From contig JALUKS010000234.1 of the NCBI GenBank assembly GCA_027056465.1, positions 1 to 44,684 on the forward strand: a DNA stretch of 44,684 nt, written 5' to 3'. A program made the translations under genes and the position numbers. Positions 7,315 to 10,448 of this stretch are shown here, one piece after another. The notes beneath the pieces are model-generated. The model saw only the letters and a list, made by a program, of their open reading frames with translations, was not told where the DNA came from and did not search any database. The DNA comes from Sulfurimonas sp. (lineage in GTDB: Bacteria > Campylobacterota > Campylobacteria > Campylobacterales > Sulfurimonadaceae). Positions within the stretch are counted from its first letter, which is position 1. Every line of letters begins with the position of its first letter.

Positions 7315-8442
7315 TTATTTGTCATAAACAACTTCTTTACTTGTAGCAATTTTTTTATCGGCATATAAAACTACATCTTTAATTACAAGTTTTTGGATGG
7401 CTGAGATGAAGGTTTCCATTAGTTGATAGTTTGGTGTGTTGTTGGTAGATAACAATGAAATATTTAATTCGTCTGCATCTGTTGCATAAAAGTTTCTTGA
7501 ATAATCAAATTGCCCTGCATATGAAGATTTATGAATAGCTGTTGTTACAAAAATTGATGCTAATTTAGGTAAATTTTCTGTATGAACAATAGCAACATGG
7601 TCATCTCCACCATATTTATAATTTCTATATTTAGCAGAACCAAACATATCAATAGTTATCGTGTTTTTTGAAAATACATTCACTTCATTTCCTATATATG
7701 CAGAAATACCATCATTTGTTTCACCTGCTGTAACAAAAGGTAAAGTTCCTGAAATTCTATCTGAACTTTTCAGTCTTCTTCCACGAGTTGATTTACTAAA
7801 GAGTTTTTCTAAATTGAACTCTTGAAATTCAAAACATCCCTTTTCAAAATCATTTAAAACTCTCTGTTCTTCTTGAGTTAAGGTATAGTTTTTAAGATTT
7901 GTTGCCATCAAATAAGCTTCTAGCTCCGCTATACGCTCCGCTTCTAGCTCCGCTATAAATTTTTCCATAAAAGAAAAATTTATCTCCCCATTTTTAATGG
8001 GGAGTTGGATTGTAGTCTTATTCATTGCTTCACGATTAAATTTATTTCCATAATCATATTTTTTAGATGTAGAAACCCTAGATGCTGAGATAATAACACT
8101 TGCGATTGTTTTGTTAAATGGTTTGAACTTTGGTACTAAGTGCTGGATATGAGAATAGCCTATAAAATCATTCTCTTGATAGTACATTGTTTCAGCACCT
8201 AGTGTTGTATCTGAGCAAGTTATCGTATTGCCTACATTGTTTGCTTTTAAATTTGAAAAGCCCATCACTCCATTATCAGTTGAAGAATTTGAAATTAATG
8301 GAACTGTACCATTTTGAGAAATTATTGCTTCATTTTTTAATTTATAATACTTTGTTGGATTTATTTCAAACAAATCCCCAAGCCTAAACTCTCCCCACTC
8401 AACACTATCCAATAGCTTGTTAAGTGAGGACTCTACTTTCCC
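7315..8442 (-). CDS. specificity (S) subunit of a BcgI-like R-M system with two target-recognition domains; probably entered by a -1 frameshift
   Basis: Two TRD halves ([44 protein letters not shown]) joined by a helical spacer. Frame is open from 8442, bounded by TGA at 8443-8445. The ORF-track start is a TTG at 8412. Confidence 0.9.
7916..7957. repeat. 18-bp direct repeat with 24-bp period in the S-subunit spacer helix ([14 protein letters not shown])
   Basis: GCTTCTAGCTCCGCTATA at 7916-7933 and 7940-7957. Confidence 0.9.
8392..8442 (-). promoter_or_regulatory. putative programmed -1 ribosomal frameshift signal (slippery heptamer plus 3' stem-loop)
   Basis: mRNA: G GGA AAG (8442-8436), 5-nt spacer UAGAG, then a 13-bp stem UCCUCACUUAACA (8430-8418) / UGUUGAGUGGGGA (8404-8392). 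The -1 frame is the S ORF. Confidence 0.8.
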
Positions 8443-10448
8443 TCAGCACCTCTTTGTTGCAAGATATTTGAGACTTCCCATGCAAGATAATCACTTACCG
8501 TTTTTTTGAAGTCATCGAGGGTAGGCTTCGTGTCTATAACCTTATGTTGGTCGAAGTTCCAGTCTGCTCCACTTGAGGTGATAAAATCTTCTATATAAAC
8601 ATCCTCTATCTTCCACTCTGCCTCAACTTTAGCCTTTGTACCTGCTTTGTAAATCTTTACAATATCTGAGTAGCGTTTCGTAGGCTCATCGGTTGCTTGT
8701 ATAGCTCTACTTGTTCTTTTGTATCCATCATTTCTAAAGTCTATAAACTTTACAGGCATATCAAAATCATGTGGTTTGCCTGCTTCTAAAATATAAATAC
8801 TTGTTTGCACACCTGCCATAGGCTGAAACAAATCGGTCGGCATTTTGATACTCGCTTTTAGCGTATGTTTTTTAAGTATAGACTTGTTTGTTTTCACCGC
8901 TTTTCCACTTCCTGCAGAATCTTGTATGATGATAGCACCAAGACCAGATTGTTCCATCTTATCTAAACCAAACGCGATAAAAGGCATACCGTTTTCATCA
9001 TAGGAAAAAGGTGGATTTAAAAGTAACTTATTTGCTTTGAAATCAGTGTAGATTTTTTCAGGTCTATTAAAAGTACTTCCTTTATGGATGTTAGAGTTTC
9101 CATCGCCTCTCAAAATCATATTTGTAGCGGCTAAGGTAAACATCTCTGCATTTAACTCAACACCTAAAAGTTGTTTTTTCTTTATATCCTCTATCTTACT
9201 CTGAGCTTGTGTTGTTTTTTTACCATAAAGTGTTTCAACATCTTCTATCATGAGTTCCATAGATGAGATTAAAAATCCAGCTGAACCTGTTGCTAAATCC
9301 ATCACTTTGCTATCTTTGTTTACATCAAGTATGGTTGCCATCATTTTAGTAACATAGGGAGGCGTTAAAACAATGCCTATCTCTTTACCATCACCTAAAG
9401 CATACTTTAAAAACTCCGAATACATTTCACCCATGATATCAAGATGCCCTGCCATCGCGTCTATAGATAAAAATATATTGTGAAATATAAAAGTAAAAAT
9501 CTGTTTATTGCTACTTGCATCTTCTTGTAGTAATTTTGAGACTTCTTTATCAAGCTCTGATAATTCATCTCTTTGTACATCTTTTGAAATCTCTGAAAAA
9601 CTCGCTAACATGAGGTTTCTTTTCTCTAGTGGTATCTCACGAGCAGTTAAAAACTCTTTGATTTGCTCTACTATCTGCACTCCATCGCGTCTTGATTCAC
9701 TTTGTATGCCTTTTAAGTCCTCAGGCACAAGTCCATCTTGAACTTTATTCCCTTGGGTATCAACAACATTTTGCATTGACAAAAGCATACCTGAAACATA
9801 AAGAACTCTTTGCGGTGCCGTAATGTTATGGTTGTGCATAAGTTTGTTTAAACTTTTAGCATATTTTTGTAAGGTCGCTTGTGAATTTATGAGAATGTCG
9901 TGCTTTTCATTTTCTGTTAAAATCGCCTCATTGTAAAACTCATCAAATGTTTTTTGGTTTTCAAGAAAATCAAGCGTTGTTATATTTTTTAGTAATTTAT
10001 AAGAGTGTTCCCCTGAACCATACACATAGTAAACTTTAAATTCTATAGAGTCATCCGAATCACCTGATAGACCTATGGCGATTGCCTCATGGTATTTTCC
10101 AGATGCTATCATACCTGTTGTGTAGTGTAAAGCTCCATTTACAGCATAATCTCGAATAGACTTTTCATCAAGCTTTACACCATCTTTTGTCTCTTTTATA
10201 AGTTTTTTTGTTCCAAGTTTATTTTCAATGATAACGGGAGTTTGTGCATACTTAGTAAGACTAAAATCAGGTTTTCCAAAGTTTGTTTTACTCTCAGTTT
10301 TTGCTCGACCTCTTAAAGCTTCTATAAGATAATCAGGCATTGCAGATTCTATATGATAATCTTTTTGACTTTTTAAGCCTAATTTTTCAAATTGAGACTT
10401 CACCCAATCATTTACATGCTCTTCTAATTTATAATTTGTTTGTGCCAT
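8433..10448 (-). CDS. fused restriction endonuclease / N6-adenine methyltransferase (BcgIA-like RM subunit)
   Basis: N-terminal PD-(D/E)xK motif (GKPDF...IIENK). Gamma-class MTase order: VLTP, motif [10 protein letters not shown], motif IV NPPF. Confidence 0.92.

Follow-up and report, generated by a model that had tools for sequence, protein, structure and literature searches.

A gene pair from Sulfurimonas sp. is probably expressed through programmed -1 ribosomal frameshifting, which would yield both a 671-amino acid (aa) fused endonuclease-methyltransferase (RM, for restriction-modification) and a 1044-aa fusion of this protein to its specificity subunit (RM-S). The pair lies on the minus strand of positions 1-44,684 (forward strand) of contig JALUKS010000234.1, assembly GCA_027056465.1, and this whole 44,684-nucleotide (nt) stretch is referred to as the window. 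An earlier note on the same DNA had described the junction of the two genes as a programmed -1 frameshift cassette, and comparison with homologous junctions supported that interpretation. The RM open reading frame runs from 10448 to 8433 and terminates in GAG GGA AAG TAG, i.e., in Gly-Lys-stop, with a slippery heptamer G_GGA_AAG (8436..8442), which we take to be the slip site of lambda gpG/gpGT, lying in the RM frame directly before the stop. The -1 frame is closed by TGA at 8445-8443 and is thereafter open from 8442 to 7315 (375 aa), encoding the specificity (S) subunit (7315..8442, 373 aa after the slip site). These coordinates agreed base for base with the earlier note, and its predicted product lengths were reproduced on recomputation (671 + 373 = 1044 aa). 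The stop codon TAG (8433..8435) forms the first 3 nt of a 5-nt spacer (8435-8431), after which comes a predicted stimulatory stem of 13 bp with two G-U pairs, formed between a 5′ arm at 8418..8430 and a 3′ arm at 8392..8404 that also encodes the S residues V-E-W-G. An inner CUAU/AUAG helix and the loop occupy 8405..8415 and contain the triplet TTG (8412-8410); homologs do not keep these inner parts. Stem, spacer and inner helix were confirmed both by sequence and by folding, the minimum free energy (MFE) of the window hairpin being -19.5 kcal/mol (z -2.7, equalled by 4 of 200 shuffles) and the MFE fold displaying 12 bp plus a 5-bp inner helix.

Given a slippery sequence, a hairpin and an S frame without a good start of its own, we infer that ribosomes likely slip back one base at this site. 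Ribosomes holding GGA and AAG in their P and A sites would pause at the hairpin, and, stimulated by it, tRNA-Gly and tRNA-Lys would slip in tandem from GGA-AAG to GGG-AAA, after which translation would continue in the S frame to the 1044-aa product. Those ribosomes that do not shift would end at TAG and release the 671-aa RM. As a control within the same genome, the ends of 1451 long frames were inspected: 20 of them carry X_XXA_AAR in the last two codons, the -1 frame is open in 8 of these, and among the 8 a strong 3′ fold was present only at the RM/S junction (-19.7 vs. -2.7 to -9.0). The junction gave no match in Rfam.

It could be argued that the two frames are separated by an assembly error, or that the locus is a broken fused gene or a site of phase variation in the DNA, since in-frame RM-S fusions were found in 19 of 187 distinct homologous loci and poly-G tracts occur inside S in some relatives. 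The probability of this is close to nil. Contigs from four runs of one study agree at the junction: X1, the possible source run, contained the stretch without any difference, and contigs of X2, X3 and X4 span the junction with no indel, the check resting on contigs and not on raw reads. The window junction has no long run of one base. Its stop and phase are shared by 141 distinct loci and by every one of the 120 best-listed RM proteins (from 4968 hits); as the earlier note had anticipated, these 120 proteins also all end in Gly-Lys. Because homologs share the junction, these readings are effectively refuted.

For the homolog comparison, 240 loci were fetched, and after removal of 2 repeats, 28 loci without an RM C-terminus, 4 running off their contig and 19 duplicates, 187 distinct junctions were retained (TGA was taken as sense in seven loci); named records belong to seven phyla by record title. 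In 141 junctions S is in the -1 frame and the last two codons of RM contain a heptamer, bearing out the expectation of a conserved heptamer and phase. The remainder comprise 11 junctions with a -1 S but no heptamer there, 12 in which S occupies some other frame, 19 in-frame fusions and 4 that are broken or could not be classified. The heptamers at the 141 loci are GGGAAAG (75), AAAAAAA (27), GGGAAAA (26), CCCAAAG (6), AAAAAAG (4) and AAATTTT (3; loci L158, L221 and L227). Gly-Lys at the RM end is encoded as G_GGA_AAR in 85 of 86 distinct loci with this ending, compared with 9 of 638 internal Gly-Lys pairs of the same genes. The residue pair encoded at the heptamer varies (GK, KK, PK, NF) and the slippery pattern stays constant, so that the swaps among G_GGA_AAR, A_AAA_AAR, C_CCA_AAG and A_AAU_UUU mean that the pattern is conserved and not the amino acids. 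Judged from these sequences, selection at the RM end is acting on nucleotides, and the junctions thus carry an in-frame X_XXZ_ZZN heptamer maintained at the nucleotide level. Here and below, papers given by PMC number are cited from the parts of them available to us. The three most efficient heptamers in E. coli are G_GGA_AAG, A_AAA_AAG and C_CCA_AAG (PMC4066793, PMC5009743), and all three X_XXA_AAG motifs seen in the homologs coincide with them; G_GGA_AAA is rated weak in E. coli (PMC4066793).

A frame change at such a site might also arise during transcription, by RNA polymerase inserting a base at the junction. Seven-A runs, which are able to slip (PMC4066793), are present in 27 of the 141 loci, and two in-frame fusions (L074 and L171) resemble one-base changes at this very spot. 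The window and 100 other loci have GGGAAAR, however, and 6 have CCCAAAG, with no long run in any of them. A stem set at the distance of a ribosome stimulator is not expected for polymerase slippage, which we regard as very improbable.

Ribosomal frameshifting is further supported by the hairpin, which was tested, together with start codons and Shine-Dalgarno (SD) sequences, at 111 canonical loci of the first set. When compared with synonymous resampling, the hairpin region gave a median z of -3.66, with z below -2 in 98 of the 111 loci compared with 5 of 220 control windows placed deeper in S. The hairpins fall into three loop-length classes, two of which share a 5′ arm that is translated in different codon phases. 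Among 53 distinct sequences of the short-loop class, 91.7% of cells pair, a value reached by none of 500 shuffles and compared with 38-50% in slid controls. The modal start of the stem is 6 nt past the heptamer, both where the stop is immediate (34 of 74) and where it comes one codon later (24 of 37). At locus L227 the distance is unchanged but the hairpin sequence is unrelated. A Mycoplasma record (L104) uses TGA for Trp within the 3′ arm, and a corresponding change in the 5′ arm preserves the stem. A conserved structure is thus found 5-8 nt downstream of the heptamer, the range in which bacterial frameshift stimulators begin (PMC4066793). The earlier note had proposed looking for a covarying hairpin: the stem is indeed conserved beyond the protein constraint, but most stem changes of the short-loop class are one-sided (G-C to G-U) and double-sided changes are few.

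The most natural competitor is translational coupling, by which free S would be made after restart at GTA 8436-8434, a codon that overlaps the RM stop in the -1 frame, or at TTG 8412, the hairpin serving only to tune the event. The TTG has no SD, as had been claimed from the letters (anti-SD pairing of its upstream region, +2.0 kcal/mol). The further claim that the hairpin buries it needs qualifying, since the triplet sits at the hairpin tip with its first base paired and the others in the loop, and it is the ribosome-binding region that lies under the stem. The predicted structure of S has a helix at residues 6-12 that mirrors a helix at 190-200 preceding the second target recognition domain (TRD), and a start at TTG, residue 11, would in this model cut the first of these helices. 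Among the 111 loci the codon overlapping the RM stop is GTA in 58, CTA in 26, ATA in 19, TTA in 6 and GTG in only 2; in 44, ATG, GTG and TTG are all absent upstream of the first core Trp; and in 7 an S start has an SD at least as strong as -4 kcal/mol, compared with 50 of 94 RM starts (best candidate, first 20 codons). Database annotation reflects this, with S started from ATA or CTG, begun 180 nt late, or missed.

In favor of coupling, an SD-like sequence lies upstream of the heptamer in 73% of the 111 loci, compared with 25% of random positions; in the window it is AGAGGU at 8448..8453, 5 nt upstream of the slip site (anti-SD pairing -9.5 kcal/mol). The element is present where the earlier note had placed it, but its role as a stimulator is doubtful: the synonymous expectation is 65%, hardly below the observed value, and we therefore do not count it as support for frameshifting. 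In some lineages the overlap at the stop reads GTGA or ATGA, or codon 7 is a conserved ATG, and free S is functional with RM in Hpy99XXII of Helicobacter pylori (PMC3936762). HpyUM032XIII shows native activity at 2319 of 2320 sites (PMC4450513), its junction not being among the sequence seen there. Coupling leaves unexplained the RM-frame heptamer and its swaps among efficient motifs, as well as the placing of the stem relative to the heptamer and not to the stop. In addition, relatives with a true S start have neither heptamer nor stem. This was seen among 10 distant plasmid homologs, 3 of which have heptamer and stem and an S annotated from ATA, from CTG or not at all, whereas the other 7 have their own ATG for S, no heptamer and weak folding. 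We consider coupling unlikely as the explanation.

Several observations weigh against a frameshift as just proposed. The loci are related, 95 canonical RM proteins reducing to 60, 31 and 9 representatives at 90, 80 and 70% identity, respectively. Nine of the 11 -1 loci without a heptamer in the last two codons (all except L204 and L207) also have no obvious ATG of their own. In the short-loop class, double-sided changes are confined to 4 of 13 stem pairs, most of them at the ends of the stem, and the conserved VEWG is encoded by the 3′ arm as well. Nearly all of the 17 loci of the long-loop class have an in-frame ATG at codon 7, within the 5′ arm, which is retained even where its pairing is weaker; a GTGA stop overlap is present in the C_CCA_AAG loci and an ATGA overlap in L240. 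Coupled initiation may therefore coexist with frameshifting in those loci. Finally, when the joint of the H. pylori genes was replaced by a ribosome-binding site and ATG, activity was obtained for J99 and none for 26695 (PMC3936762), and since free S and RM of Hpy99XXII are thus active once a start is engineered, fusion is not required for activity.

The proteins themselves identify the system as Type IIB and BcgI-like. RM (8433..10448) matches N6_Mtase and the PADLOC model REase_MTase_IIG (E 9e-229), and a pattern match at 9276..9299 (residues 384-391) is what we take to be the S-adenosylmethionine (SAM)-binding motif I. A candidate PD-x-ExK endonuclease motif (10218..10271, residues 60-77, a pattern match only) and the NPPF catalytic motif of gamma-class N6-methyladenine methyltransferases (9006..9017, likewise a pattern match) follow the definitions in PMC4081073. 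Pfam, PADLOC and these patterns together describe an N-terminal PD-(D/E)xK endonuclease fused to a gamma-class m6A methyltransferase. The S frame has two Methylase_S matches and the PADLOC assignment Specificity_II, and its structure, predicted from a 74-sequence alignment (predicted local distance difference test, pLDDT, 90), shows an HsdS-like module with two TRDs and two long conserved helices, resembling HsdS folds and chain C of BsaXI; this model was used in place of a single-sequence one with pLDDT 29. The locus does not have the single-chain form of Type IIB enzymes, as RM and S are not one frame (TAG 8435-8433, -1 phase), nor, on sequence grounds, the form with two separate genes, as S has only TTG 8412, without SD, for a start.

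A pair of one RM and one RM-S would reproduce the (RM)2S core found in Type IIB enzymes, and some RM would be left over whenever fewer than half of the ribosomes shift, and we lean slightly toward a 2:1 stoichiometry set by recoding as the purpose of the cassette. The frameshift may instead be real and serve a ratio other than 1:1 of RM to RM-S, keeping the specificity chain scarce or providing spare RM, with some other oligomer perhaps being active; the mechanism would be the same and only the purpose would differ. Heptamers of differing strength are in use, cleavage by BcgI is thought to draw in surplus RM (PMC4081073), and both full in-frame fusions and slip-site loci with half an S exist. 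The last two also tell against a 2:1 purpose, since five loci (L050, L051, L223, L228 and L230) encode complete RM-S fusions in frame that have no slip site, and 13 of the 111 slip-site loci have only half an S. Of the remaining slip-site loci, 87 have a full two-TRD S, which needs two RM and so speaks for the 1:1 ratio, and 11 are cut by contig ends. Also on the side of 1:1, BsaXI is (RM)2S in over 95% of particles (PMC11997821), and the cassette-bearing fusions L074 and L171 are RM-half-S chains, of which a homodimer would be 2:1 without any shift. We place the chance of a purpose other than 1:1 clearly short of even.

Those two fusions retain the slip sequence and the stem, with the same linker read in frame, and look like recent one-base conversions. 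Among 13 in-frame fusions that were scored, the stem is lost in 10 (z -0.8 to 1.6), eight of which share one Campylobacter-type linker; the heptamer, like the stem, is absent from most in-frame fusions. In three further loci (L052, L153 and L076) RM is fused in frame to TRD1 and the fusion stops at a poly-G or (AG)n tract; these probably phase-vary between half and full S. A FastTree tree gave long-branch warnings, and no order of events is claimed.

In E. coli phage PhiR12_3 (L238, about 3500-3560) the cassette is present downstream of the Q gene, and annotation begins its S 180 nt past the RM stop. TRD2 of the window has 70-83% identity to domains at the first or second position of other S genes (L031-L193 comparison), and TRD1 of the window is found beside different second TRDs, a pattern of modular shuffling of specificity. 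The 39 bases that code for the S start (8366-8404) have one copy in the window's own genome; in run X4 they occur on short contigs with a depth of up to about 1770 and many continuations, RM having a depth of about 5, a pattern that points to repetition of a TRD-border sequence in one of the organisms sampled there. The genome of the window also contains, at the end of contig C17 (6-851), another RM homolog, which is partial and 30% identical. Downstream of S, at 4197-7126 on the minus strand, are genes for a 3′-5′ exonuclease, a 150-aa protein without a match in NCBIfam and a RecD-like helicase. The GC content of S is lower than that of the window (0.31 vs. 0.354), and a promoter scan was at chance level (17 vs. 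15.8).

If the frameshift is true, it would be a notable addition, a widespread -1 frameshift in a defense system, as most of the -1 frameshifts proven in bacteria belong to insertion sequences and phages (PMC4066793). It would also account for the published puzzle of the start-less S of H. pylori BcgI-like systems, offer a possible answer to the imbalance between catalysis and specificity noted for fused Type IIB enzymes (PMC4081073) and require many annotations to be corrected, in which S is begun at ATA, at CTG or 180 nt downstream, or is missed. Type IIB systems and -1 cassettes are each known, and their combination was not found in the literature searched: no description of frameshifting in Type IIB systems was met in full-text literature, a coverage outside which lie REBASE notes, patents and most subscription papers. 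No such frameshift cluster appears in the abstract, passages and supplement file 2 part 2 of Antonov 2013 (PMC3711429). Liang and Blumenthal (2013; PMC3850674) looked for frameshifting in a C-REase fusion, which is another kind of system, and detected none.

The closest known systems are those of H. pylori, HP1472/HP1471, JHP1365/JHP1364 (Hpy99XXII) and HpyUM032XIII, which belong to the same family as the window system; relatives of the window system in H. pylori methylate bipartite motifs (PMC3936762, PMC4450513). In HP1472/1471 and JHP1365/1364 a stop follows RM and there is no start from which to reinitiate S (Krebes et al., PMC3936762), and in the available parts of the H. pylori papers the junction is either regarded as a defect or passed over. 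The joint primers of PMC3936762 contain C_CCA_AAG and the 5′ stem arm, so that by its primers this pair carries the same cassette; part of the J99 primer matches 4 of 237 loci exactly (L211, L212, L214 and L236), and these have the full stem. Primers for the UM032 junction were not found in the portion of the PMC4450513 supplement available. The H. pylori systems differ in having a poly-G tract between the TRDs and, at J99-type junctions, a GTGA overlap.

The cassette itself resembles those of dnaX, IS911/IS3 and the phage tail chaperone g-t, which combine an X_XXA_AAG heptamer with a 3′ structure 5-8 nt away (PMC4066793, PMC5009743), and G_GGA_AAG is a known phage g-t shift site (PMC5009743). 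Those cases concern other genes, and the window junction differs from them in having no Rfam match and in that an upstream SD stimulator is unsupported. The protein arrangement has a parallel in an engineered EcoKI M-S fusion, in which an active pair of M and M-S takes the place of M2S (Roberts et al., 2012; PMC3510504), although that fusion was made by mutagenesis in a Type I system, with no natural recoding. BcgI, BsaXI and phage phi-42 likewise have a fused endonuclease-methyltransferase gene followed by a two-TRD S gene and a core of 2RM:1S (PMC4081073, PMC11997821), but their S is described as separately translated, whereas that of Sulfurimonas is predicted to be reached by a frameshift; RM of phi-42 is 30% identical to that of the window, and its S lies in +1 with no heptamer. 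AloI, PpiI, CjeI, TstI and HaeIV resemble the predicted frameshift product, and also the 19 in-frame fusions, in being single RM-S chains, but they make only the fusion, with an imbalance of catalysis and specificity (PMC4081073), where the window locus would make both chains. On balance we marginally favor a broader picture in which a large mobile branch of Type IIB systems, with members in H. pylori, in streptococci and in an E. coli phage, would build (RM)2S as an RM/RM-S heterodimer whose ratio is set by -1 frameshifting. Small changes at the junction would have given the separate-S, full-fusion and half-S-fusion forms, databases would start S wrongly, and the branch would represent a third architecture between those of BcgI and AloI.

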